From positions 6,462-70,461 of the forward strand of contig NZNM01000056.1 of the NCBI GenBank assembly GCA_002694885.1: DNA of 64,000 bases, written 5' to 3'. This DNA is from Opitutaceae bacterium. GTDB taxonomy: Bacteria > Verrucomicrobiota > Verrucomicrobiia > Opitutales > Opitutaceae. Under the pieces are notes generated by a model. That model was given only the letters and a program-made list of their open reading frames with translations, made no database searches and was not told the origin of the DNA. This document shows, piece by piece, positions 2,958 to 15,701 of this stretch (positions within the stretch are counted from its first letter, which is position 1; the number at the start of each line of letters is the position of its first letter). Both the position numbers and the translations under genes were made by a program.

Positions 2958-5276
2958 TTAGCAGTTGATTCCAGGCACTCGCCAAATGTAATCGGGATCG
3001 ACATGCGGGGTGTCGTTTTCACGACCCTCCATCAGGGCGATCTTTTTGCGGATTAGATCAGCTATGTTGTCACCGTAGATGAATGTCGTTTCTCCAACCT
3101 CGGATTGAACCATCCATTCAGTTTTGGCACTTTCCACATGAGCGAGAAGCAGCTGGGCATTCGCTTTTTCGTCTAGCACGGTCTCTCGCACCAAATTTTG
3201 GCACCGTTTTTTCTCCTCAGGTTTATCGGATTCGATGTAACCATGAACGCCTTCGATCCAGGCGGCGATATTTCGCTGGGAACGGAGCCAGGATTGGCTG
3301 CCCTTGAGCCGCTCTAAGTGATGTATCCAAGCATCACTAGCGCTTGCATCCGAATTGGCCGAAGCCAGTCCAGCTTCAGCCAATTCGATTGCCTTTGCTA
3401 TGGCGGGCAGCGAGTCGTTGGTCATCGCGTGTCTGCATTTGCCCGCGTATTCGGGCGTGCAGAATTCGAAATTTATCTCCCGTCGGAAATCGGTGCGAAT
3501 GCGGTTGTTGACATGTCCCAGGTGAAAATCCTCGTAGTAGGCGCGTTCGTCTTCGCTCAGGGCTTCGAAATTAGGGACGAACGGTCGAACCAAAATGCGA
3601 TACCAAGTACACCAAATGGCCAATACATTGACTGGGGCCGGGAAACTCCGATAGGCATTGTCGGCCTGTAGCCAAAGATCTACGAGCTGATCCGCCCCTT
3701 CTTTTCCAACCCACTTTACTGCCTTGCGCTTCAGTAATTCATCCAGCGGCAGTGACGGCTCATTTTGGAATGCTTGGATCACTTCCTGGTTTATATTGTA
3801 GGGAGCCAGGGTGGCGGGTGTCGAGCCGCAGAGGCCGGCGATATGTGATGCCTCCTGGGCGTGTAAGTCGCGCAGTTTTTCCCAAAGCATTTTTGGATAC
3901 ATAGGCGCCTTGACCGGTTCCATGTTCCAGAAAGATCCCGGGCTAAAGTAAAGGTGGGCATTGGAGCCCTTCGACTCAAGCAGCTCTTTTCGAGGCTTTT
4001 CCCGGGCGTCGAACTGATTGAATAGACCAGAAAAGGTGAACTCCTTAGCCCAGTTGTATTTTGGGTGATGGTAGTCAGCGTCAAAACCCTTGCTGACGAG
4101 AGTATTGGTCTCTAGCTCGATTCCGTCTTCGACTTGGTCCCAAAGATGATCCTGTTCTGCGTAAAACATCTCGCTGCGGAGCATACAGCTGAAGCGCGGA
4201 TTAACGCTGCGACCGGCATCGCGAATCGTTTTCATGAAACGGATAATGTTAGTCGCTGCTGCTTGGGCGATTTCGTCGTCGCTTTTGAATTCACGAATGA
4301 CGTAGCCGCCGCCGTTGCGTCCCACGTAGAGTGAGCTCGTGTATTCGAAACCGGCTCCGCTATCGTTCGACCAGATAGACATGTAGTCTATATTGGGAGC
4401 AGCTTTAACTATTTTGGTGAGCATCTCGGTGTAGTGTTCGAGAACGACTGGGTGGGCAGTTGTGAGGTTGTACCGAGGTCTAAAGCTTCTAAGCGGATGA
4501 TCGACTCTCGCTCCGCGTAGCATTGGATAACGCTGAAGCAGCTCGTCTGGAACAGAACGCGGTTCGAAAGAAAGAATGCCCGCTCGTAGGCCATACTTTT
4601 CCGCGAGCTGAGCGGAATGGACCAGCTTCCGCAAATTGGCCTGCAGGTAGTCGAAGGGATAGATACCCTTATTCAGCTTGCTGTAGACGAACTGGTCCAA
4701 GGCCGGGCAGTAGGTGTAGAATAGATACAGCAATTCTTCGGGAGCTGCTTTTTCATATGGGAAGTTGGCCGCGTAGCCGTTCACTTCTATGTGTGTATAG
4801 CCTTGGCGGGCCATTTCGCGTATATGGTCTTCGGGGTCGAATCCTTTAGCCGTCCGAGCATGGTTATTAAGCAGGGAATCGTAAGCTGGACGAAGCATCT
4901 TGAAGGCTGGCGTTATCAACTTTCCTTCGGAGAACTCGGATAGTTCGCGATCCGGCCATTCATAGACTACTTGGCAGGCCAACCTGTAGAGAAACCAAGT
5001 ATGGGAAACGAAAAGTTGAAGCGACTGATCGGACTCCGCTATCACGAACATCCAATCCTCTTTGCTTTGAATAGGCAGGTTCCGGGCTTCCGCTTCGTTT
5101 TCGCTAAGAACGCCGACTGTAATCCTTGGCTCTGTACCGAGAGGATCTCTGTTATTGATAGTCGCTTCCTCAGCGAGCGATTCCTGTAGAAATTCAGCAG
5201 TCGTCGTCTCGACAGGAATCGAATCGTGAAGACGGGTGATAGATTTGGCAGACTCTAGAAATTGGGCTATTTTCAT
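2958..5276 (-). CDS. Hypothetical 772-aa protein, possibly a glycoside hydrolase-like (beta/alpha)8 enzyme with an N-terminal GH20/GH67-like domain
   Basis: Long ORF with natural composition. The N-terminal segment followed by HIREMARQGYTHIEV and YMSIWSNDSGAGF resembles barrel CAZymes. No family assigned with certainty. Confidence 0.6.
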   Translation of the reverse strand: MKIAQFLESAKSITRLHDSIPVETTTAEFLQESLAEEATINNRDPLGTEPRITVGVLSENEAEARNLPIQSKEDWMFVIAESDQSLQLFVSHTWFLYRLACQVVYEWPDRELSEFSEGKLITPAFKMLRPAYDSLLNNHARTAKGFDPEDHIREMARQGYTHIEVNGYAANFPYEKAAPEELLYLFYTYCPALDQFVYSKLNKGIYPFDYLQANLRKLVHSAQLAEKYGLRAGILSFEPRSVPDELLQRYPMLRGARVDHPLRSFRPRYNLTTAHPVVLEHYTEMLTKIVKAAPNIDYMSIWSNDSGAGFEYTSSLYVGRNGGGYVIREFKSDDEIAQAAATNIIRFMKTIRDAGRSVNPRFSCMLRSEMFYAEQDHLWDQVEDGIELETNTLVSKGFDADYHHPKYNWAKEFTFSGLFNQFDAREKPRKELLESKGSNAHLYFSPGSFWNMEPVKAPMYPKMLWEKLRDLHAQEASHIAGLCGSTPATLAPYNINQEVIQAFQNEPSLPLDELLKRKAVKWVGKEGADQLVDLWLQADNAYRSFPAPVNVLAIWCTWYRILVRPFVPNFEALSEDERAYYEDFHLGHVNNRIRTDFRREINFEFCTPEYAGKCRHAMTNDSLPAIAKAIELAEAGLASANSDASASDAWIHHLERLKGSQSWLRSQRNIAAWIEGVHGYIESDKPEEKKRCQNLVRETVLDEKANAQLLLAHVESAKTEWMVQSEVGETTFIYGDNIADLIRKKIALMEGRENDTPHVDPDYIWRVPGINC

Positions 5277-5517
5277 GTTGCTTTGGCCTCAGCGGAATTG
5301 GGCGAATAAGGGTACTGCGGCGTGGCACCGTTGAAAACTGAAGCGGAGTAATCGATTTTCTTTTAGCTTTACGATAAATACCTCGATGGCTCTCAAAGAG
5401 TGCCTGAATTTGAACTTTTTTAGGTGAAGCGGATACTGATTTGCAGGCTTCGCGGCTTGATTATAAACCAGCGATTCAAAGACAGCACATGGTCGATACC
5501 TGGTAAGAAAGCGATTT

Positions 5518-5580
5518 TAGGAGCGGGTTTATCCCGCGATACAAAATAGTCTATTCAATCGCGGGCTAAACCCGCTCCAA
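5518..5580. repeat. REP-like inverted doublet
   Basis: TAGGAGCGGGTTTATCCCGCGAT ... ATCGCGGGCTAAACCCGCTCCAA; shares CGCGGGCTAAA with 58941-58965. Confidence 0.75.
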
Positions 5581-5634
5581 CGATGAGGATGTCGATAGCC
5601 ATGGGGTCTAATTTGCGACATCAGCATCCACCCT

Positions 5635-7626
5635 CTATCGCGAAAGCGCCTGCGGGCTCGGTTCGCCTTGAATGACGAGGTAGCGGCCAGCTTCAAGACC
5701 TTCGATAATCGTATGCGTTTTCGGATTGGATTGCCATTCGATGACCACTTTGGATGCTCGATCAGCGGCGTTCAGCCCAACATGGATAATGGCTTCGTTT
5801 TGCTTTCCGGAGTGCCCTGCCGGTCCCAACAATTGTCTGCTCTGTACGACCTCAGGTGTACCAGGATCGCCGTCCGTGTCTGCAGTAACTCGAACGATCG
5901 CTCCGAATGCCTCGGAGGATACTCCTCCTTTTGGATCGCCTTGGAGATGAAGAATAATTGATGCGCGCCCGTTGCTGGACTCATTTAGATATAGTCTAGC
6001 TCGAGGTTCGGGCGGTCTGTCATCGTTCGAATTCGGCGAAAGGGCGCCGCTTTCGATCGACGCTTTAATACGTTGGGATCGAGTTAGTCGATTGAAGCTC
6101 TGGCCTACTAGCAAATCGAGGTCTCCATCGAGATCTACATCCGCTAGCGAGGGCATGCCTGCTCCGACATGGTCAAGCCCAAGGTCGCTAGTGACGTCAA
6201 GGAATCGGCCATCCGTTTGCTGAAAATAGATGCGAAGCCGCTCGTCATGAGGAGGTGGGTCTGGATAGTCTGAGGAGCAGAGAACGAGATCCAATCGCCC
6301 ATCGTGATTGAGATCCGCAAGCTCTGCATAAATGTCGCCTTGATTGTAGGATGTGTGCTCTTCGGTTAGGGGAACGCCAGGGTCAGGAAGATCGGGAATA
6401 CGGTCTACCGATAGGTGTTCGAATGTCGCAAAGCTAAGCTCGCCCGTCTCGCTGAGCTGGTTGACTAAAAACCGAGAACGATCGGAAGATTCTCCCGCCC
6501 AGGCGTGGATGATAGTGGATACAAAGAGATCGAAATCTCCGTCATTGTCGATATCGCCGACAGCGCAATCGAACGTGTTCCCGTTGGAGCGGAACGGGGC
6601 CTCGTCGGGACGTTGCGAGCGTGGATGGGCGTTGGCTTGATCGCGGTTCCATTTCGGATGCCGACCGTGGCGAATCCCATCTCCATCCACCTTTGTTGCC
6701 GAAGCTATATTTTCGCCAACAAGCTGCCGGACAAGGTGATCCCTGATAGCGTCGGAATCGTTTGGCGCTAAAGGACCTGGTTTGTTCTCTGTCCACTGAA
6801 TCTCCTTGATGGGACCGCGGAGAGCCATTCGGTAGAGCCTATTCCAACGTCGGCCGTAGTTTAGTTCCAGAACCATGGGCAATCCGCTGTCAAGACGGGT
6901 AATCGCTACCCCGTAGGTCGGTCGGCCTCCTAGGTCGTCATGAAAGTCGGTAGGCGACGTTTCCAATGGGAAGGGCCAACGGGTAAAGCCAGGTTCCCCA
7001 TCTGTAGTTGGATATTGGATCAAAAGATCATTCGAAAACGCTTCGTATCCAGTGAAATATCGCTGGTACCAATTTCCGAAAAGGCAGTCGAGCAATCCAT
7101 CTTGGTTGACGTCGCCGATCGCGATTGCTCGCGTTGTCGTCAGCGGAGCCTTTTCGAATATCTGGGCCTGGCCAAACGACCCGTCGCCGTTGCCAGGCAT
7201 CCAGGCGGACCGTTTGGGGCCTGATACGGGTGGGGAATAGTCGTCTTGATAGATGTCGTTGTATCGGCTGAGGATCGCGTCCTTGATGCCATCGTTGTCT
7301 AGATCCGCGAAAACCAAGGTGTCGGCCGTTCGCGCGGCAGGGAGCTGCGTAGCCGACGCTATCTGGAATTGAAAACCGATTCCCTCTCCTGACGGGCTTG
7401 GTTTGTTCAAGAATACTCGAGGCGCGATGCCGGGTCCTGATTTCGGCAGAATCACCGCATCGGGACGTTGGTCGGAGTCGAGATCCACGAATTTCACCAA
7501 GGAAACAGCCTGTCCCTCGAGTCCGGCGGAAATCGTGGCATCGACCCACCTCTCAGCGGAAACCGGGACCACCAAGGTGGCAAGCGCGCCGACGAAAAAG
7601 AGAAGCGGATTTCGAAAAGCGGGCAA
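5635..7626 (-). CDS. FG-GAP/VCBS repeat protein with C-terminal ASPIC/UnbV-like domain (CRTAC1 family), secreted
   Basis: Repeated DxDxDG motifs (DLDNDGIKD, DVNQDGLLD, DIDNDGDFD, DLNHDGRLD, DVDLDGDLD); C-terminal HVGL...VIEW UnbV-like pattern. Start moved to TTG at 7626, just before a signal-peptide-like stretch. Confidence 0.8.
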   Translation of the reverse strand: MPAFRNPLLFFVGALATLVVPVSAERWVDATISAGLEGQAVSLVKFVDLDSDQRPDAVILPKSGPGIAPRVFLNKPSPSGEGIGFQFQIASATQLPAARTADTLVFADLDNDGIKDAILSRYNDIYQDDYSPPVSGPKRSAWMPGNGDGSFGQAQIFEKAPLTTTRAIAIGDVNQDGLLDCLFGNWYQRYFTGYEAFSNDLLIQYPTTDGEPGFTRWPFPLETSPTDFHDDLGGRPTYGVAITRLDSGLPMVLELNYGRRWNRLYRMALRGPIKEIQWTENKPGPLAPNDSDAIRDHLVRQLVGENIASATKVDGDGIRHGRHPKWNRDQANAHPRSQRPDEAPFRSNGNTFDCAVGDIDNDGDFDLFVSTIIHAWAGESSDRSRFLVNQLSETGELSFATFEHLSVDRIPDLPDPGVPLTEEHTSYNQGDIYAELADLNHDGRLDLVLCSSDYPDPPPHDERLRIYFQQTDGRFLDVTSDLGLDHVGAGMPSLADVDLDGDLDLLVGQSFNRLTRSQRIKASIESGALSPNSNDDRPPEPRARLYLNESSNGRASIILHLQGDPKGGVSSEAFGAIVRVTADTDGDPGTPEVVQSRQLLGPAGHSGKQNEAIIHVGLNAADRASKVVIEWQSNPKTHTIIEGLEAGRYLVIQGEPSPQALSR

Positions 7627-7640
7627 GGCGGAATCAGGAA

Positions 7641-8465
7641 TTAATCCGAGGCCTCGTCGAGGCGCTCGACCGTATCCAAAAGTATGCGCAAACGGCGAAG
7701 ATCCTCGCGAGTCGACTCCAATAGGGGAAAGACATGCGTCTCTAGAGTAATGTGCTCGATGGGCCGATCGTTTGTCAGGGCTTGGATTTGCCCGAGCCAG
7801 TTGACGCCTCCATCTCCGATTAGCAGGTTCTCCCACTTGTCGGGAGGAACTGGGATAGTATCTTTGACATGCACGTTCAGAATATAAGGGAGCACCGCCC
7901 GGTAGCCGATTGGGTAAGCGGCCTCTCCGGAGCTAACAGCGTTTCCAGGATCCCAGTTGATACCTACGCTCTCCAGTCCGATAGCTTTGACGAGGGCGGC
8001 GGTATTCTCGCCGGTATCCGCGTAGAAGCCTGGCTCGTTCTCGACTGCCATTTTTAGCCCGTGGTCGACGACTATCTGGCCCGCTTTTTTCAAAATATCG
8101 ACCGCTTTGGCCTCTGATCCTTCTGTGGATCTCATAAAACTGAATACAACGATATTGGGCGCTTTGAGACGTTGAGCCATCTCGCAGGTTCGAGGCAGTA
8201 TGTCATCAAGCTCAGCGGCAATTGCCTCTTGTTCGGAAAGCCTTCGTTTGAAAAGGCCGGGGGCGAGGGCCGTGAGCTCCAATTCGCCTGCATCGATCTC
8301 AGCCTTTAGGCGTTCCTCGGTTCCCGCTGGAAGGTTGGGCACTCGTTTCTCGTAGGAGTCGACGCAACGCAGCTCGTATTTTCGAAACCCGAGAGCCTTC
8401 CCCTCAGTTAGGGCCTCATTCAGGTCAAGAGAGATTTCGTCAGTCAGTATTCCGATTTCTAGCAT
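7641..8465 (-). CDS. Sugar phosphate isomerase/epimerase (xylose isomerase-like TIM barrel, AP_endonuc_2)
   Basis: MLEIGILTDEIS start; metal motifs AVENEP, NWDPGN, HVKD, LETH. The ORF-track extension to 8642 runs through a repeat. Confidence 0.85.
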   Translation of the reverse strand: MLEIGILTDEISLDLNEALTEGKALGFRKYELRCVDSYEKRVPNLPAGTEERLKAEIDAGELELTALAPGLFKRRLSEQEAIAAELDDILPRTCEMAQRLKAPNIVVFSFMRSTEGSEAKAVDILKKAGQIVVDHGLKMAVENEPGFYADTGENTAALVKAIGLESVGINWDPGNAVSSGEAAYPIGYRAVLPYILNVHVKDTIPVPPDKWENLLIGDGGVNWLGQIQALTNDRPIEHITLETHVFPLLESTREDLRRLRILLDTVERLDEASD

Positions 8466-8559
8466 GGTCTGTAGACATCCATCAAAGGATATTTGGCCTA
8501 GCGATTTACGAGCGATTCCAAGATCGTTTTCCGGTAAAGCGTACAGGATTAGGATTAGT

Positions 8560-8636
8560 TGTAGGTAGCTCGCTTGCGAGCGATCGTTTTCCTGGAATGG
8601 GCCCTGGTTGATTCGCTCGCAAGCGAGCTTCCTGCA
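8560..8636. repeat. REP-like inverted doublet, copy 1 of family TG(T/C)AGG(T/A)AGCTCGCTTGCGAGCGA
   Basis: 24-bp arms 8560-8583 and 8613-8636 (2 mismatches); second copy at 60118-60194. Confidence 0.85.
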
Positions 8637-8736
8637 CAGCATACCTTTTGAGTAGATGAGAACTTGTCTCCAGCGATCGAGCTCTTCCGTTCAAACAGCG
8701 TCCAATCTGTACGTAAATCACTTTGATAGGATCAGG

Positions 8737-8817: not shown

Positions 8818-9669
8818 CTAGGCTCGCCGTTTTCCTCCGGTCGCCTTTTGCCTGAATTCGGTTGGGGATTGGCCCGTTAGTCGCTTGAAGGTCTTGGAAA
8901 AGTGGAAAGGGTCGCAGAATCCGAGCTCGTCGGCCAGCTCTTGGAAGGTGTGCGTTCCCTGGTAGATGGCGGATTGGGCGAACTCAATTCGCTTCTGATT
9001 TTGGAATTTGGCGGGCGCGACTCCACGGGCCCTGGCAAAACGCTTTCGAAAGTTCTCGTAGCTTAAACCGACACGGCGAGCGACTTCCTCGGGAGCGATC
9101 CAGAGGCCCTCCATCGGTCCCGATAGCATCTCGGTCGCCGTATCGATTCGCGAGGCAGCGCTATCGATTTTGGCTTCCGAATCTCGAGTTTTCATTTCGA
9201 TTAGAAGCTGGCTGAATTGTCCGAGGATCTTGAGGCTTTGAGTAGGAAATCTATTTCGGGTGGAGTTTAGGCGCTCCTCTACGCGCTGATTCCAGTAGGT
9301 TATGCTATCGAGTTGCCATATTGGTTGACCGGGATCCAAGACACCCGCTTGCCTTAGCAATTCGAATTGAGGGCCATTGAAGATAGCGTAGGTGTGGGAC
9401 CAATCATTCTCCTGCATAGCCCCGTAGGCGTGGGCCAGCTCGGGAAAGACGATGATAGCGTCTCCAGTCTCGAGTTCCGTATCGATGCCGTGGGAGTCCT
9501 TGTAATAGGCAGTGCCGGATAGAATGAGAACTAGAGCATAGTCTCCCAAAATACGCATATTACCTGGATCGATGCCCGGGGTGTCATGGAGTTCGCCAGC
9601 GTGCAATATCGATCCTATTTCACTCGTAATAGGGGTTGAAACCCAAGTTTTGTATCGAGGTTTTTCCAC
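8818..9669 (-). CDS. AraC family transcriptional regulator
   Basis: N-terminal cupin-like ligand domain; C-terminal double HTH (EEVARRVGLSYENFRKRF; ELADELGFCDPFHFSKTFKRLTGQSP). Confidence 0.95.
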   Translation of the reverse strand: MEKPRYKTWVSTPITSEIGSILHAGELHDTPGIDPGNMRILGDYALVLILSGTAYYKDSHGIDTELETGDAIIVFPELAHAYGAMQENDWSHTYAIFNGPQFELLRQAGVLDPGQPIWQLDSITYWNQRVEERLNSTRNRFPTQSLKILGQFSQLLIEMKTRDSEAKIDSAASRIDTATEMLSGPMEGLWIAPEEVARRVGLSYENFRKRFARARGVAPAKFQNQKRIEFAQSAIYQGTHTFQELADELGFCDPFHFSKTFKRLTGQSPTEFRQKATGGKRRA

Positions 9670-9674
9670 TCTAA

Positions 9675-9725
9675 TTTTATCCCAAATTGTACATGCTTAT
9701 TCCCAAATCAACCATTTATTGGGAT
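9675..9725. promoter_or_regulatory. Candidate AraC-type operator: direct repeats at 21-bp period plus an inverted half-site
   Basis: CCCAAAT at 9681 and 9702 (21-mers match 13/21) and ATTGGGAT at 9718-9725, in the divergent intergenic region. Confidence 0.55.
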
Positions 9726-9774
9726 GCAGAGATGGGCTATCATTTCCCTGTTACCGCTTAAACCATTTCAGACT

Positions 9775-10698
9775 ATGAGCTCAGCAGCCACATTGCCTCA
9801 GTTCTACTCATACGAGCATGCTCTCGATATGGATCGAGACCGCATAGGAACGCTCCGCGAATCAGCAGATGCGGCCGACGATTTCGTCGAGTTAAGGCGA
9901 CGGCTGGAAACGGATGGCTACCTTTTCATGAAGGGATACTTGTACAGGGAAGAGGTGCTGGCGGCGAGAGAGGAGATCGCTCGAGCCATGGCTTCGAAGA
10001 ACTTGTTGGATCCAGATTTTCCGGAAATGGATATGCGTTGCCGACCCGAGGCCTCGATGGAGTTCATGCCAGAGATCGCCGCTGCCTGTCCGCAGGTTCA
10101 AAAGGTGCTCTACTCCGGTCGCCTGATCGATTTCTACAAGGGGTTTTATGGGGAGTCGGTCAAACACTACGATTTCACTTGGCTCAGGGCGATGCCTCCC
10201 GGCAAAGGAACCAACCCTCACACCGATCTTCCTTACATGGGCCGGGGCACCCACAACCATATGACCTGTTGGATGCCTTACGGAGATATTCCTTACGACC
10301 TAGGTGGATTGATGATTTTGGAAGGCTCTCACCGTCGGATGGATCTCCTCAAAAACTACGTGTTTCGCGATGTGGACGCGTACTGCGAGAACAAACCGGA
10401 GCAAAAGCAGCGGGCCGAAGAGGGAAAGTGGACCTTCACGGGGACGCTTTCCCACAATCCGCCTCGGGTTCGGGATAAGTTCGGGGGAAGGTGGCTGACT
10501 TCCGAGTTCGAAGCGGGAGATTTCCTCACTTTCGGCATGTTTGTGGTGCACGCGGCCGTAGACAATCGGTCCGATAACGTATTTCGAGTTTCCAGTGACA
10601 GTCGTTATCAGAGGGCAAGTGAGCCTATAGACGATCGGTGGGTCGGCGAGAATCCGCCCGGCCACTCGACAGCGGGCAAGCGTGGCCGCATTTGCTAG
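9775..10698 (+). CDS. Phytanoyl-CoA dioxygenase (PhyH) family Fe(II)/2-oxoglutarate-type dioxygenase
   Basis: HxD (PHTDLPY), distal His (VHAAVDN), R-x-S (RVSSDSRY), TCWMPYGD..GGLMILEGSH pattern. Confidence 0.9.
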   Translation: MSSAATLPQFYSYEHALDMDRDRIGTLRESADAADDFVELRRRLETDGYLFMKGYLYREEVLAAREEIARAMASKNLLDPDFPEMDMRCRPEASMEFMPEIAAACPQVQKVLYSGRLIDFYKGFYGESVKHYDFTWLRAMPPGKGTNPHTDLPYMGRGTHNHMTCWMPYGDIPYDLGGLMILEGSHRRMDLLKNYVFRDVDAYCENKPEQKQRAEEGKWTFTGTLSHNPPRVRDKFGGRWLTSEFEAGDFLTFGMFVVHAAVDNRSDNVFRVSSDSRYQRASEPIDDRWVGENPPGHSTAGKRGRIC

Positions 10699-10725
10699 AT
10701 CGCTTTCGATACGATACAGATTATC

Positions 10726-12045
10726 ATGCCTCAAGCGACATCATCTAGCCAAGCGGATTCCCGCGGTTCCAGGCGTATGGCTGCGGTAGGATCCGCGGTC
10801 AAAGGCCTCCGGGCTCTTTTCGAAGTGGAGCGAGAGATCGTGCGTTGCCTCACGACCTTCATCTATCGAGTTGGCGATATCGAATTAAAGTATTTGCTTT
10901 GCCAGCACGTTTGGGAATCGGCGGGGCATGCTCGGTTCATTCGAGAGCGCGGAAACGAGTTGGGCAGTTTTGGCAAGAACGAGGCGGCCCGTGAGGAGAT
11001 AAGGCGCATATTTGAAGAATCGATACGGGTTGACGATGAGATCGAAGGATTGGCTGCGTTCTACAGAGTCGTCAAAGGAGAGCTTTTATACGCGTATCGA
11101 AAATATTTGGACATAACGCATTCATTGGCTGATTGGCCCTCTCGCAAATTGGTTGAGGAATTCATTCAAGACGAAGAGAGGCATCAAGCTGAGATACAGC
11201 CATATATTGATTCTGCGGAGGACGCGGCCTGGGTTCAGCGATTGCGACTAGCCTTGAGTTCTCAAGGCGGTTGGCTCGGAGTCCTACCCAAAACCGAATC
11301 GCCGGACGATTTCAATTGGCGTTGGCCTGATTTGCCTTATCGCCATCCGGATACCTGCAACAGAGGCGATTATCCTGTGTGTTCCAGCGTTTTTGGATAC
11401 GATCCGGATGAATTCCCGATTTGTCGCGATTGGCTGGAGGATCCGAAAACTGATGCCCGAATCATTCGTCTAATGATCTATGTATGGCTAATGATGGAGC
11501 TCGACGCGGTCGATTACCTGTCGACGGTGTTCTATGAAACTCCGGATGCTCCTTTCGATCTCCATTACGATTTGGCCAGGCACTTGTGGGACGAGTCTCG
11601 CCATAGCGCATTTGGATTCCGTCAACTGCCTAAACTGGGCGTTGACCTCACGACGCTCGAGCATTCGTTGAGTCTCTACAATGTATTGATCCAAATGACC
11701 CCGCCCGAGCGCTATGCCATGATGACAATGGAGTTTGAAGCGGGTAGCTTTGGGACCAAGGCTCACATCATGGATCGTGTGCGTGAATTGAGCGATTTCG
11801 AGGCTGACACACTCCTGGCTTTCGACCGAAATGACGAGCAGCAGCACGTTCGTTATGGCCACCGATGGCTGCCAGTGATTATGGAGCTCTTCGAGATTGA
11901 TAAACCTGTCGATGCCTTCGTTGAGGAGACGCGCAAGCGATTCCAAGAGCTGGAAAAGACTTACGGAAAAATAACGCCACACAGCCTTAGCAAAGAAAAG
12001 CGTCTTACTGCGAAGAAACTCGTTCAGCTTGCGGGAGTCGAATAG
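10726..12045 (+). CDS. Tandem ferritin-like (DUF455-like) di-iron protein
   Basis: Four ExxH motifs in two modules: WESAGH and DEERH (N-half), WDESRH and NDEQQH (C-half), each with upstream Glu helices. Confidence 0.75.
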   Translation: MPQATSSSQADSRGSRRMAAVGSAVKGLRALFEVEREIVRCLTTFIYRVGDIELKYLLCQHVWESAGHARFIRERGNELGSFGKNEAAREEIRRIFEESIRVDDEIEGLAAFYRVVKGELLYAYRKYLDITHSLADWPSRKLVEEFIQDEERHQAEIQPYIDSAEDAAWVQRLRLALSSQGGWLGVLPKTESPDDFNWRWPDLPYRHPDTCNRGDYPVCSSVFGYDPDEFPICRDWLEDPKTDARIIRLMIYVWLMMELDAVDYLSTVFYETPDAPFDLHYDLARHLWDESRHSAFGFRQLPKLGVDLTTLEHSLSLYNVLIQMTPPERYAMMTMEFEAGSFGTKAHIMDRVRELSDFEADTLLAFDRNDEQQHVRYGHRWLPVIMELFEIDKPVDAFVEETRKRFQELEKTYGKITPHSLSKEKRLTAKKLVQLAGVE

Positions 12046-12120
12046 AGAGATCCGTTCCCATCGATAGATAGAGCGAGATGCTCATAGAGTGTCTAGCTAG
12101 CCTCTTTACAAATGCCGAAT

Positions 12121-12417
12121 GGCAGGGCTGATTATCCTTAGTCAGCCGTGTCTGTGAACCTCTCCTAACACGGCTGATCCCGCAACTGCGCATGGACGTC
12201 AACTTGAGCTCGCCCAGAGGTCGAGCTCCACGTTTCATGCTCCGGACTAGGGGTGGAACGCGACGTCCCGGCGCGTTCTATTAGGCTGAAATCAGTTAGG
12301 TTGAAGCGATCCCGCGACAGTGCGTTTTTTGCCAGATATAGTTTGCGAGACCGTATGCTCATCTGTGGAATCAGTCCTACCTCCCAAAGTAGGTTGAAGC
12401 GCCATCTCCTGCGCTTT
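12121..12417. repeat. Mosaic of several REP-like hairpins
   Basis: 12121-12147 GCAGGGCTGATTATCCTTAGTCAGCC; 12206-12231 (GTGG on minus strand); 12253-12278 GTGGAACGCG...CGCGTTC; 12389-12417 GTAGGTTGAAGCGC...GCGCTTT. Confidence 0.7.
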
Positions 12418-12496
12418 GAGTTATAGCTTGGCGAGTTTTTACGGTAATCTGTCTACGCCTCTTGAAACGCTAGGGTCTTAGCCGCAACTTCGGGGT

Positions 12497-13228
12497 ATGG
12501 GAGCGTCGAGAGTCGAAAATTCCAAACCTCATCCATGGGGCCGTTACGCCGAGCTGAGACCAGAGCAGATTTCTTCGATTCGAGAGCAGAGCAACATCGC
12601 GTTTGTTCCGTGGGGCGCCCTCGAGTGGCATTGCCAGCACGCTCCAATAGGATTGGACTCGACGAAGGCGGAGGGTATCTGTCTGGCAATCGCTCGAAGA
12701 GTCGGGGGAGTGGTGCTTCCAGCCATTCCCATGGGAGTCAATACGATCAAGCCATTTAAAGGCTTTCCTCATTCGATCGATTTCTCGGGCGATCTCGTCG
12801 CTGAGGTCGCTGCTGCCTTCTGCAATCAGCTAGCGGATGAGGGGTTCCAGATAGTCGTCCTGCTTACCGGTCACTATCCTCCGGAGCATGTGGCAGCCCT
12901 GGAAGAGGGAGCCAGCAAGGCTAGGGAGGCGTACCCAGATATTGATTTCATAGTCTGGGCGGATAATGAGCTTATGGGAGAGGCCTACAAAGGTGATCAT
13001 GCAGGGGCGACGGAAACTTCCTTTCAACTGCTCTTCGATCCATCGAATGTCGACCTAGAATCTTTGCCTGATCGTCCCCTGACGCTAGATGGCGATGGTG
13101 TTATGGGTGAAGATCCGAGAGACGCCTCCGAGGAACGGGGGCGTAGGCAGCTGACCATCGCAGTAGCCGCTGCGGTTGCCCAGATAGAGGCAATTCGCGA
13201 CAACGAGGATACCAATAAATCGCAATGA
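12497..13228 (+). CDS. Creatininase / creatinine amidohydrolase family protein
   Basis: GALEWHCQHAPIGLD, LTGHYPPE and DHAGATETS metal-binding motifs. Confidence 0.9.
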   Translation: MGASRVENSKPHPWGRYAELRPEQISSIREQSNIAFVPWGALEWHCQHAPIGLDSTKAEGICLAIARRVGGVVLPAIPMGVNTIKPFKGFPHSIDFSGDLVAEVAAAFCNQLADEGFQIVVLLTGHYPPEHVAALEEGASKAREAYPDIDFIVWADNELMGEAYKGDHAGATETSFQLLFDPSNVDLESLPDRPLTLDGDGVMGEDPRDASEERGRRQLTIAVAAAVAQIEAIRDNEDTNKSQ

Positions 13229-14187
13229 AGCTGAGACCTTTGGGAGAGACGGGTATGGAGTGCTCCGAAATTGGGTTGGGCACCTGGGCGTTGGGGAGCG
13301 GCGTTTATGGAGAAGTCGAACGAAACGAGGCTCATAACCTGATCAGCCAGGCTCTAGATTTGGGTATTAACTTTTTCGACACAGCGCCTCTTTACGGGAA
13401 TAAGAACGAAGATGGCGTCGCGGAGGTAGTGCTAGGGGAAGGTTTGGGGATACGCAAAGATCAGGCAATTATTTCTACCAAGTTCGGTCGAACAGCTCGT
13501 AAGGTCATGCCCCCGCGATTCAATGCGGTTGAAGCTAAGCGGTCATGTGATGAGAGCTTGAAGCGCTTGGGACGCGATTGGATTGATCTGCTCTTTTTTC
13601 ATTCACCTTTTGAAGCGGGCGAGATCGAGGACGACGTTTGGCAAGCTCTCGCGGAGCTAAAGGAAGCCGGAAAAATCCGATTCATTGGCCATTCGGTTTC
13701 CATGTATGATGATACCAAGGCCCTCTCTGAGCAATGGATGTCTGAGCGAAAGATAGACGCTATCCAGGTCGTGTTGAGTCCCTTCAACCGAGAAACCCGT
13801 CCACTAGTCGAGACCGCGGCCAAGTTGGGTCGGGCAGTTGTCGCCAGGGAGTGCATGGCCAACGGATTTCTTAGTGGCCAGATTCGTAAAGACACGGTTT
13901 TCCCGGAGGGTAGCCTCAATGCCAGGTATTCCAGGGAAGAGATTGCCGAACGGGTGGAATACGCCTCCGCTCTTTCGGAATGCCTAGTATCCGGTGAGAT
14001 CACTTCGCTCCCCCAGGCAGCTTATCGTTGGACCTTGGATCAGCCTGGAGTGTCGCTCGCCTTGGCTGGAGCTAGGAGCGTGGATGAATTGATGGATGGA
14101 ATCAGGGCTTCTCAGGCAGAAGCGTACACTTCGGAAACTCTCGAAGCTTCAGAAGTGATTCACAAAAAGGAGTTTAGCCCTGCTTAG
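13225..14187 (+). CDS. Aldo/keto reductase
   Basis: SEIGLGTW, FFDTAPLYG, IISTKFG, SLKRLGRDWIDLLFFH; overlaps the upstream stop (ATGA). Confidence 0.95.
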   Translation: MKLRPLGETGMECSEIGLGTWALGSGVYGEVERNEAHNLISQALDLGINFFDTAPLYGNKNEDGVAEVVLGEGLGIRKDQAIISTKFGRTARKVMPPRFNAVEAKRSCDESLKRLGRDWIDLLFFHSPFEAGEIEDDVWQALAELKEAGKIRFIGHSVSMYDDTKALSEQWMSERKIDAIQVVLSPFNRETRPLVETAAKLGRAVVARECMANGFLSGQIRKDTVFPEGSLNARYSREEIAERVEYASALSECLVSGEITSLPQAAYRWTLDQPGVSLALAGARSVDELMDGIRASQAEAYTSETLEASEVIHKKEFSPA

Positions 14188-14402
14188 AGGGTGCTCTGGG
14201 TGGGTTTGCCCTCTGTCCGCCGAAATTTGCCAGTAATTCCGTGTCTGGTTTACCGGAAAAACAGCTTTTTGATGACCAGCGGCCGAACCGCTCTAAGGTT
14301 TTCTGCAACGATGGGTGGGCTTCTCCTAATGATTACTCGATCCAATTGCTAGGTCAGCGATAATCGGGAAGAAATTTTTCCAGTTTGTCGTTGAACCCTT
14401 TC

Positions 14403-15701
14403 ATGGCCTCCAAGCACGCTGAACCCACTCCAATTAGACCCAATCCTCCCTTCAAAGTGGGATTGATAGGGGTTACCGGCTACGGATACGACTATTTCAA
14501 GTGCCTATCGAAACTGGTTGAACAGGGTCGCATCGAATGGGGGGCTGTTACGATAATCAACCCGGATGAGGCAAGGGAGCAGATTCAGATTTTCGAGAGC
14601 TTAGGCGTCCCTATCTACGCTGACTACCGGCAGATGCTCAAGATGGAAAGCCGAGCTTTAGACTGGGTTTGCATCCCCACTGGGATCGGTTTCCACAAGC
14701 AGATGGCAGTCGATTGCCTCAAACTGGGTCTGCAGACTCTCGTGGAGAAGCCCTTGGCCCCAGTCTTGCAAGAGGTCGAGGCTATACAGGATGCGGAGAG
14801 GGAAGCGAACATCGTGGCATCGGTTGGTTTTCAGCACACTTACGTCGAGGATACCTGGAAGATCAAAAAGCGCTTGCTGGAAGGGGCGATTGGCCAAGTA
14901 CAGCGAGTGGATTGCCTAGGGCTCTGGCCGCGATCCAGGGATTACTACCACCGAAACGAATGGGCCGGTAAACTGCGAGTAGGGGATTCCTGGATTCTGG
15001 ATTCGCCTTTCCATAACGGACTTTCCCACCTGGTTAATCTAATTCTTTTTTGGCTGGGGGATACTTTGGAATCAGGGGCAGATCCGAAACAAATCAGCGC
15101 CGAACTCTATCGCGCCAAAGATATCGAGTCTTTTGATACAGTGCGTACCGTGGCGACGACGGAAAGCGGCGTGGAAGCGGCGGTCACCGTTTCTCATAGC
15201 TCACTGCATAACATCGACCCGGAGATTCGGATTACTGGTACCGAAGGTCAATTGCTCTGGCGGTATAGCGGGGCGCATTCGCTAGTGAGCGACAATGGTT
15301 CCGAGACGATCGTATCCTCGAATCCAGTCGAAATCCGAGCGCTCATGTTTGATGCCGTTGTCGACCGAATAGGGGGCGCCAAGTCCCGAAACTGTTCGAC
15401 CAGGTTAGCGAAAGGCGTTTGCAAGTGGGCTAACGCTATTCACGACACCTGCCCGATTGAAGATATTCCTGATAGATTTCGAGTTAAGGTATCCAGCGAG
15501 AACGGCGAAGCTTTCGACGCTATCGATAATCTAGAATACATCGCCCTTAAAGCCCACAACGAAGGCATTTCCCTAAAGGCGGCGGGGGCGCCTTGGGCTA
15601 TAGAGCCGTTGGTTCGCGACGTAAGCGACTACAGAGAGTTTGAAGGAAAGCTCTGTCACCCGGTTGATGGAAAGGGCAAGATTGTCGAAATTTCCTCCTA
15701 G
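14403..15701 (+). CDS. Gfo/Idh/MocA family oxidoreductase
   Basis: VGLIGVTGYG Rossmann fold, IPTGIGFH, LVEKPLA, VGFQH. Confidence 0.92.
   Translation: MASKHAEPTPIRPNPPFKVGLIGVTGYGYDYFKCLSKLVEQGRIEWGAVTIINPDEAREQIQIFESLGVPIYADYRQMLKMESRALDWVCIPTGIGFHKQMAVDCLKLGLQTLVEKPLAPVLQEVEAIQDAEREANIVASVGFQHTYVEDTWKIKKRLLEGAIGQVQRVDCLGLWPRSRDYYHRNEWAGKLRVGDSWILDSPFHNGLSHLVNLILFWLGDTLESGADPKQISAELYRAKDIESFDTVRTVATTESGVEAAVTVSHSSLHNIDPEIRITGTEGQLLWRYSGAHSLVSDNGSETIVSSNPVEIRALMFDAVVDRIGGAKSRNCSTRLAKGVCKWANAIHDTCPIEDIPDRFRVKVSSENGEAFDAIDNLEYIALKAHNEGISLKAAGAPWAIEPLVRDVSDYREFEGKLCHPVDGKGKIVEISS

Follow-up and report, generated by a model that had tools for sequence, protein, structure and literature searches.

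A conserved pairing of a PhyH-type oxygenase with a duplicated ferritin-like DUF455 protein under an AraC-family regulator in Opitutaceae

What do a PhyH-type dioxygenase and a protein built from two ferritin-like modules do side by side in one gene cluster? The question is raised by a locus from an Opitutaceae bacterium (assembly GCA_002694885.1, contig NZNM01000056.1, positions 6,462 to 70,461 of the forward strand), which we analysed as a single stretch of 64,000 nucleotides (nt), hereafter the window. Here, a PhyH-family Fe(II)/2-oxoglutarate (2OG) oxygenase of 307 amino acids (aa) (Pfam PF05721) is encoded on the plus strand at 9775–10698 and is followed, after a spacer of 27 nt (stop codon TAG at 10696–10698, start codon ATG at 10726), by a 439-aa duplicated ferritin-like protein of the DUF455 family (Pfam PF04305; 10726–12045, plus strand). 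Divergent from both is a minus-strand gene (8818–9669) for an AraC-family regulator, with matches to the cupin-type AraC_binding (4.2e-6) and HTH_18 (6.9e-17) domains. An initial annotation of these three open reading frames (ORFs), all of which are present at the coordinates it gave, had proposed an undescribed two-step oxidative cleavage or dealkylation system whose second protein would hold two dimetal centres. Its account of the layout was accurate throughout, as the ORFs, Pfam searches and an alignment of 34 homologues bore out the coordinates, the 27-nt spacing, the HxD...H triad of PhyH and the dedicated AraC gene. It was also right that a pairing with a ferritin-fold di-iron partner is undescribed, as we found no characterised DUF455/PF04305 member in the literature and no close relative among solved structures. 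The pairing itself is real: a PhyH-type oxygenase and a ferritin-fold di-iron protein, with an AraC regulator of their own, form a conserved and uncharacterised combination.

In order to define how far this arrangement extends, we compared 80 loci taken from GTDB species genomes, in which the di-iron genes were 62–93% identical and which covered Opitutaceae, Pelagicoccus, Lacunisphaera, Oleiharenicola, Cephaloticoccus, Didemnitutus and other genera. All 76 of the loci that extend far enough upstream had a PhyH orthologue directly before the di-iron gene and in the same orientation, and the same arrangement was found in 16 more metagenome loci with room upstream, giving a total of ∼92. Most of those 76 genome loci also had an AraC homologue, encoded on the opposite strand ∼1.9 kb upstream. 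Furthermore, 49 of 151 family genomes carried the di-iron gene, and every one of these 49 also carried a PhyH orthologue. Identity across the family was 62–70% for the PhyH and di-iron proteins, compared with 38–50% for AraC and 50–70% for neighbouring enzymes. The two genes are nevertheless separable. Two loci, L167 (G385:C16:1248000-1262000) and L168 (G405:C31:104000-118000), are natural cluster variants without the di-iron gene, which is cleanly absent from an order of c8–(AraC)–PhyH–(SSF)–Gfo–c6–c7 (where Gfo denotes a Gfo/Idh/MocA oxidoreductase, SSF a transporter, and c6, c7 and c8 are protein families); in one of these two genomes the spacing from PhyH to Gfo was 38 nt. In the nearly complete genome G330, the di-iron gene (60% identity) was found 39 kb away from a c8–AraC–PhyH cluster that runs on into an epimerase and sugar ATP-binding cassette (ABC) permeases, and genus g177 (G328, G397) resembles this unlinked arrangement. 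Outside the family, a PhyH-family neighbour, and a weak one, was seen at only two or three of ∼66 distant loci (L122, L154, L159). Thus, the suggestion that homologues of the 439-aa protein are linked to PhyH genes held within Opitutaceae and largely failed beyond it: the PhyH link is strong but specific to this clade, and does not define the di-iron family.

These arrangements bear directly on the possibility that the two enzymes form an obligate two-step cleavage system, in which PhyH would hydroxylate a carbon and the di-iron enzyme would then bind through the new hydroxyl and cleave the adjacent bond, as a ferritin-fold analogue of PhnY/PhnZ, TmpA/TmpB and MIOX. The strict same-strand adjacency under one AraC in ∼92 orthologous loci argues for such a system, as does conservation of both proteins, at 62–70% identity, above that of their neighbours, at 40–60% in this comparison; the lack of a reductase partner likewise fits a substrate-driven four-electron oxidation, the type of reaction carried out by MIOX and PhnZ. 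As with PhnY/PhnZ and TmpA/TmpB, a gene for an Fe/2OG oxygenase accompanies a gene for a di-iron protein in a catabolic cluster with no encoded reductase partner. This likeness is, however, one of logic only, as PhnZ and TmpB are HD-domain proteins, whereas the partner in the window is DUF455/ferritin-like with no HD-domain match, no phosphonate genes lie near the pair, and coupling is not obligate. In disagreement with obligate coupling are the persistence of the cluster in L167 and L168 despite absence of the di-iron gene, the unlinked genes of G330, the scarcity of PhyH beside distant relatives, and a 43%-identical relative at L082, which keeps the order di-iron–Gfo (type c4)–c7 without PhyH, its c7 being 42% identical. 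On these grounds, the obligate PhnY/PhnZ-like scheme of the initial annotation was not supported. As PhyH-only and di-iron-only clusters feed the same Gfo–c7 module, it is more probable that the two oxygenases would work in parallel, each on its own substituent or substrate variant, or would be partly redundant, than that they would perform obligate consecutive steps. We regard the two-step route as unlikely but still serious, given the strength of both adjacency and conservation and the lack of an encoded reductase.

Considering each protein in turn, the first gene is predicted to encode a PhyH-type Fe(II)/2OG oxygenase with an intact triad. Its product matched PF05721 at 43.4 bits (cut-off 22) over profile positions 2–211 of 213, and the 307-aa start at 9775 agreed with >100 homologues of 307–308 aa. 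The facial triad H149-T-D151...H259 was invariant among the 34 aligned homologues, as was R271, a candidate for the basic residue that would bind the C5 carboxylate of 2OG. Homologues were 64–97% identical across Opitutaceae. The sole solved relative found was PtlH (2rdn; E-value 1e-5 over 160 residues), a 1-deoxypentalenic acid 11-beta-hydroxylase of the PhyH fold family, the H-Q-D of which aligned with H149-T-D151. Nevertheless, PtlH is very distant, belongs to terpenoid antibiotic biosynthesis and is not an orthologue; NCBIfam gave 34 bits against a cut-off of 550. An AlphaFold2 model built on a shallow alignment reached a predicted local distance difference test (pLDDT) score of only 58.6, too poor for pocket inspection. 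Additionally, PhyH paralogues of 41–53% identity exist in Opitutaceae, with up to five per genome; amongst G117, G358, G362, G381, G390 and G418, some contain four or five and some have tandem pairs (e.g. L169:6057-7890 and L173:649-2483). These paralogues adjoin rhamnosidase-like glycoside hydrolases, heparinase II/III-like lyases, metallophosphoesterases, sugar-binding proteins and AraC regulators. In one paper on Verrucomicrobia, PhyH appears merely as a guess about phytol.

The second gene product matched DUF455 (PF04305) at 57.4 bits (2.2e-15; cut-off 34.3) over residues 256–408, corresponding to profile positions 72–225 of 247. In its N-terminal half, residues 53–163 gave a sub-threshold match to the Pfam Ferritin family (20 bits, cut-off 24.5); no NCBIfam model matched the protein, and there was no Pfam match at E ≤ 0.01 to the AurF, MiaE, Phenol_Hydrox or rubrerythrin families. 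AlphaFold2, using a 70-sequence alignment, predicted two helical bundles with a pLDDT of 95.4 and a predicted template modelling score (pTM) of 0.93. In the model, the helices of the N-terminal bundle span residues 9–45, 52–78, 105–130 and 137–161, and those of the C-terminal bundle residues 244–271, 277–303, 326–354 and 358–388. A profile–profile comparison of the halves with hhalign (probability 92%, E-value 6e-7) indicates that the protein is an internal duplication. The N-terminal bundle, whose metal site is degenerate by position mapping and column counts, covers residues 18–178 (10777–11259, plus strand), whilst the C-terminal bundle, with a di-iron ligand set that is complete by conservation and a bacterioferritin alignment, covers residues 244–415 (11455–11970, plus strand). 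Between them lies a linker that is mostly non-helical in the model (residues 179–243; 11260–11454, plus strand). Mean pairwise identity within Opitutaceae was 68% for the N bundle compared with 83% for the C bundle. Within the linker, H207, C211 and C219 are clade-invariant (HPxTCNRGxYPVCSSVFG), as is C59 elsewhere in the chain; the linker motif, which is missing in distant relatives without a PhyH neighbour, could bind a metal or serve redox chemistry as a small site, or could act as a surface for docking. Known structures offered little guidance, as a sequence search against PDB chains returned nothing at E ≤ 10 and a Foldseek search of the model against the PDB matched nothing beyond single bundles of the generic ferritin, Dps and YciF kinds (E ≥ 0.03). 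A homologue of VlmB (6d9f), the latter being a di-iron azoxy-forming enzyme, was rejected as a relative, the profile match (E-value 0.0025) being too weak and generic.

With regard to the metal sites, the C-terminal half contains E258, E290-x2-H293, E338 and E371-x2-H374, a full E/ExxH/E/ExxH set, with second-sphere aspartates (D289 and D370) directly before each ExxH (WDESRH, NDEQQH). This set was near-invariant across 70 relatives, and each of its ligands was retained in 54–55 of 55 distant relatives (19–46% identity), which is far beyond chance. The family profile aligned these residues with the ferroxidase motifs FDEMRH, EVELE and ADEEHH of bacterioferritin (E-value 8e-5). Accordingly, the likeness to bacterioferritin comprises aligned ligands in the C-terminal half and a four-helix bundle in each half; the match is at bundle level only, however (E ∼1e-4; Foldseek E ≥ 0.03), and the 439-aa protein differs in being a fused two-bundle monomer with a 65-residue linker, encoded in a catabolic operon. 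Neither haem-binding nor cage-forming features came to light in it, with no search aimed at them.

The initial annotation had counted a second such site in the N-terminal half. All four of the motif strings on which it relied are present and two bundles were indeed predicted, but only the C-terminal set is complete. By hhalign, E35 corresponds to E258, E64 to D289, S65 to E290, H68 to H293, K117 to E338, E150 to E371 and H153 to H374; the N-terminal half therefore retains four of six ligand positions (E35, H68, E150 and H153), with S65 and K117 replacing two glutamates. Moreover, WESAGH reads as E64-x3-H68, i.e. ExxxH rather than ExxH. It is distinctly improbable that both bundles nonetheless bind metal, with a canonical C-terminal site and a non-canonical mono- or dinuclear N-terminal one (E35, E64, H68, E150 and H153) forming two active centres. 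In keeping with that arrangement, E33, E35, E64, H68, E98 and E150 are invariant in Opitutaceae, H153 is kept in 14 of 15 sequences, and the DEERH motif persists. Yet two ligand glutamates are replaced, and K117 is itself conserved family-wide, being present in 14 of 15 close relatives and in 36 of 55 distant ones; H153 is changed to Gln in 34 of the 55 distant relatives, where E150 survives in just 23, and one Opitutaceae sequence has Met at position 153. As the ligand losses and the conserved K117 recur in distant relatives, degeneracy of the N-terminal site is old and family-wide. Only the C-terminal bundle having a complete ligand set, one catalytic di-iron centre with a degenerate partner bundle is expected, in place of the two dimetal centres originally envisaged.

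By analogy with the inactive subunits of PaaA/PaaC and the multicomponent monooxygenases, the N-terminal bundle probably has a structural role, or one in binding substrate or a partner. The alpha/beta subunits of those enzymes similarly combine an active ferritin-like bundle with a homologous bundle minus metal ligands, and the T4MO beta-subunit gave a weak match on the N-half of the 439-aa family (E-value 0.03). In contrast to these systems, the two copies in the window are fused in one chain without significant sequence membership, and no reductase, ferredoxin or effector genes accompany the pair. Very remote is the possibility that the 439-aa protein handles iron or detoxifies peroxide, as a ferritin, Dps or rubrerythrin-like protein protecting or supplying the Fe/2OG enzyme: the only structural or sequence neighbours found were bacterioferritins, Dps and YciF-type bundles, and some sources label homologues 'rubrerythrin', but these matches are weak and confined to a single bundle, there is no rubredoxin domain, none of the features expected of a cage-forming ferritin were noted, relatives lie in clusters for sugar uptake and oxidation that are controlled by AraC and lack a PhyH gene, and DExRH-type motifs are typical of O2-activating di-iron enzymes.

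We next turned to the surrounding genes, which form two versions of the cluster. In marine genomes, the pair is accompanied by a creatininase-family amidohydrolase, an aldo/keto reductase (AKR) and a distinct Gfo/Idh/MocA oxidoreductase; upstream of it lie genes for a TIM-barrel enzyme and an FG-GAP protein. Genomes from freshwater and soil have instead an SSF transporter, the small secreted protein c6 and the 283-aa protein c7. The window is of the marine type. Pfam assigned a creatininase-family amidohydrolase at 12497–13228, an AKR at 13225–14187 and a Gfo/Idh/MocA oxidoreductase at 14385–15701, all on the plus strand, and, on the minus strand at 7641–8642, a xylose-isomerase-like TIM barrel of the AP_endonuc_2 family (1.2e-24), a family that also adjoins distant two-bundle DUF455 genes in L082 and L086. 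Creatininase and AKR genes lie downstream of the di-iron gene in ∼21 marine-type loci. The creatininase-type gene begins directly at the di-iron stop codon in some of these, including the related marine loci L025, L030 and L035, and as such the 450-nt gap 3′ of the di-iron gene in the window (12046–12496), seen only in this genome, looks like an operon insertion. A Gfo/Idh/MocA gene is found near the pair in most Opitutaceae loci, being of type c21 in marine loci (upstream in a few) and of type c4, downstream, in freshwater and soil loci.

Amongst the remaining families, c7 (∼283 aa) comes after Gfo/Idh/MocA in clusters of the freshwater and soil type and also in one distant relative from a metagenome (L055:15019-15915, L167:7425-8303, L082:10569-11417), and is missing from the window's own genome; it had a weak aldose-1-epimerase profile match (3nre, E-value 0.004) and no Pfam or NCBIfam match. 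In the SSF transporter of these clusters (L055:9449-11509, L051:9453-11540), the transporter core is preceded by ∼190 additional N-terminal residues that begin with a signal-like segment. On the minus strand of the window, 2970–5252 encodes a member of c8, 35% identical to L055:3551-5941. Proteins of this family, ∼770–800 aa long, were encoded in 39 of 80 Opitutaceae loci, lay upstream of the pair where the locus was mapped, and gave no Pfam, NCBIfam or PDB match; tandem copies occur (L055:1124-3466 and 3551-5941), and c8 stays with PhyH where the di-iron gene is missing or elsewhere. A scan of 9600–12600 for promoters and terminators gave signals no better than chance. The public runs with the locus were marine DNA metagenomes, where it appears as contigs, and no RNA run was among them.

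Pfam and NCBIfam searches of the neighbours revealed no phosphonate genes, returning instead the creatininase-type, AKR, Gfo/Idh/MocA and TIM-barrel proteins; a class-V pyridoxal 5′-phosphate (PLP) enzyme scored 52 bits against the cut-off of 361 for PhnW-AepZ. The neighbourhood evidence points to carbohydrate-type catabolism, not phosphonates, and the phosphonate connection drawn from PhnY/PhnZ was dropped, there being no supporting gene. A Thermotoga-type inositol route, in which IolN is a creatininase-family enzyme, was likewise rejected, as the creatininase-type protein scored 24 bits against the IolN cut-off of 245. Evidence for a sugar context came from the SSF transporter, a Gfo/Idh/MocA protein with 93 bits to the IolG model and the aldose-epimerase-like c7.

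A similar sugar-related setting was found for distant two-bundle relatives. A 50%-identity representative library contained 530 relatives at E ≤ 0.001, many of them two-bundle proteins of 400–470 aa with 23–46% identity, from Actinomycetota, Limnochordia, Paenibacillus and other hosts. Longer relatives, of 475–554 aa, showed no additional domains of an informative kind, reductase and Rieske domains included; the N-half of one relative had a sub-threshold match to Phenol_Hydrox. Neighbours at L082 included Gfo/Idh/MocA, AP_endonuc_2, SSF, a rhamnosidase-like glycoside hydrolase and GxGYxYP proteins; those at L081, arabinofuranosidases and DUF4432; and those at L085, sugar ABC permeases, FG-GAP and AraC-type regulators. 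At L086 the neighbours were Gfo/Idh/MocA, AP_endonuc_2 and a second, tandem DUF455 copy, the two 451-aa two-bundle genes (L086:2616-5357) following the Gfo/Idh/MocA and xylose-isomerase-like TIM-barrel genes and preceding one for a 1575-aa pectate-lyase-fold/F5_F8 type C protein. Overall, a Pfam tally of 90 neighbours at 34 distant loci yielded seven AraC, five Gfo/Idh/MocA, eight sugar-binding, three ABC permease and three PfkB matches.

Taken together, we filed the pair among ferritin-like di-iron oxygenases and Fe/2OG oxygenases of catabolic clusters. Our tentative reading, to which we give a little less than an even chance, is that it forms the oxygenase core of an AraC-induced, cytoplasmic Opitutaceae cluster that catabolises a small compound of carbohydrate type, with a modified sugar or cyclitol the most likely candidate. 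PhyH and the di-iron enzyme would each use O2 to hydroxylate a C–H bond of the imported compound, likely at a position beside an ether oxygen or other heteroatom, such that a blocking group would be lost, for example by O-demethylation. The resulting plain sugar or polyol could then pass to the neighbouring Gfo/Idh/MocA dehydrogenase, the aldose-epimerase-like protein, the TIM-barrel enzyme or the AKR. A precedent for oxidative unmasking in polysaccharide utilisation exists in marine Bacteroidota, where P450s O-demethylate 6-O-methyl-D-galactose ahead of dehydrogenases (PMC6292453, PMC10033563). The role proposed here would be analogous, although the catalysts are wholly different, those enzymes being haem P450s with a ferredoxin and a reductase.

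Several observations weigh against this assignment. No reductase or ferredoxin gene accompanies the di-iron protein as an electron source for a monooxygenase cycle, and an oxidase-type reaction drawing electrons from the substrate is possible. The marine variant adds the creatininase-type amidohydrolase and an exported PLP enzyme, which suit a methylated sugar less well than a substrate that contains nitrogen or is a cyclic amide; the marine clade may handle a nitrogen-containing variant of the substrate. Finally, near-universal adjacency and high conservation also fit a physical complex or consecutive steps.

More broadly, it is conceivable, if somewhat doubtful, that two-bundle DUF455 proteins are an unrecognised class of ferritin-fold di-iron enzymes, oxygenases or oxidases, with free sugars or cyclitols as substrates, acting for example by O-dealkylation or by MIOX-like cleavage using the substrate's own electrons, with PhyH recruited in Opitutaceae so that more kinds of modified sugar could be unmasked. 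If true, DUF455 would have its first function and bacteria a new way to use blocked sugars. The family is ferritin-like and widespread, and includes a large two-bundle sub-family that has one predicted catalytic site and one ancient degenerate site, and whose members occur in AraC-controlled sugar uptake and oxidation clusters of several phyla. The Opitutaceae, in which the di-iron gene is almost always joined to PhyH, are abundant polysaccharide degraders in the sea, lakes, soil and insect guts, and their natural one-gene genomes are ready comparison strains. Should unblocking of sugars or cleavage of cyclitols be the role of these enzymes, it would close a gap in the account of how such compounds reach central metabolism, and would represent new chemistry for the ferritin-like di-iron family.

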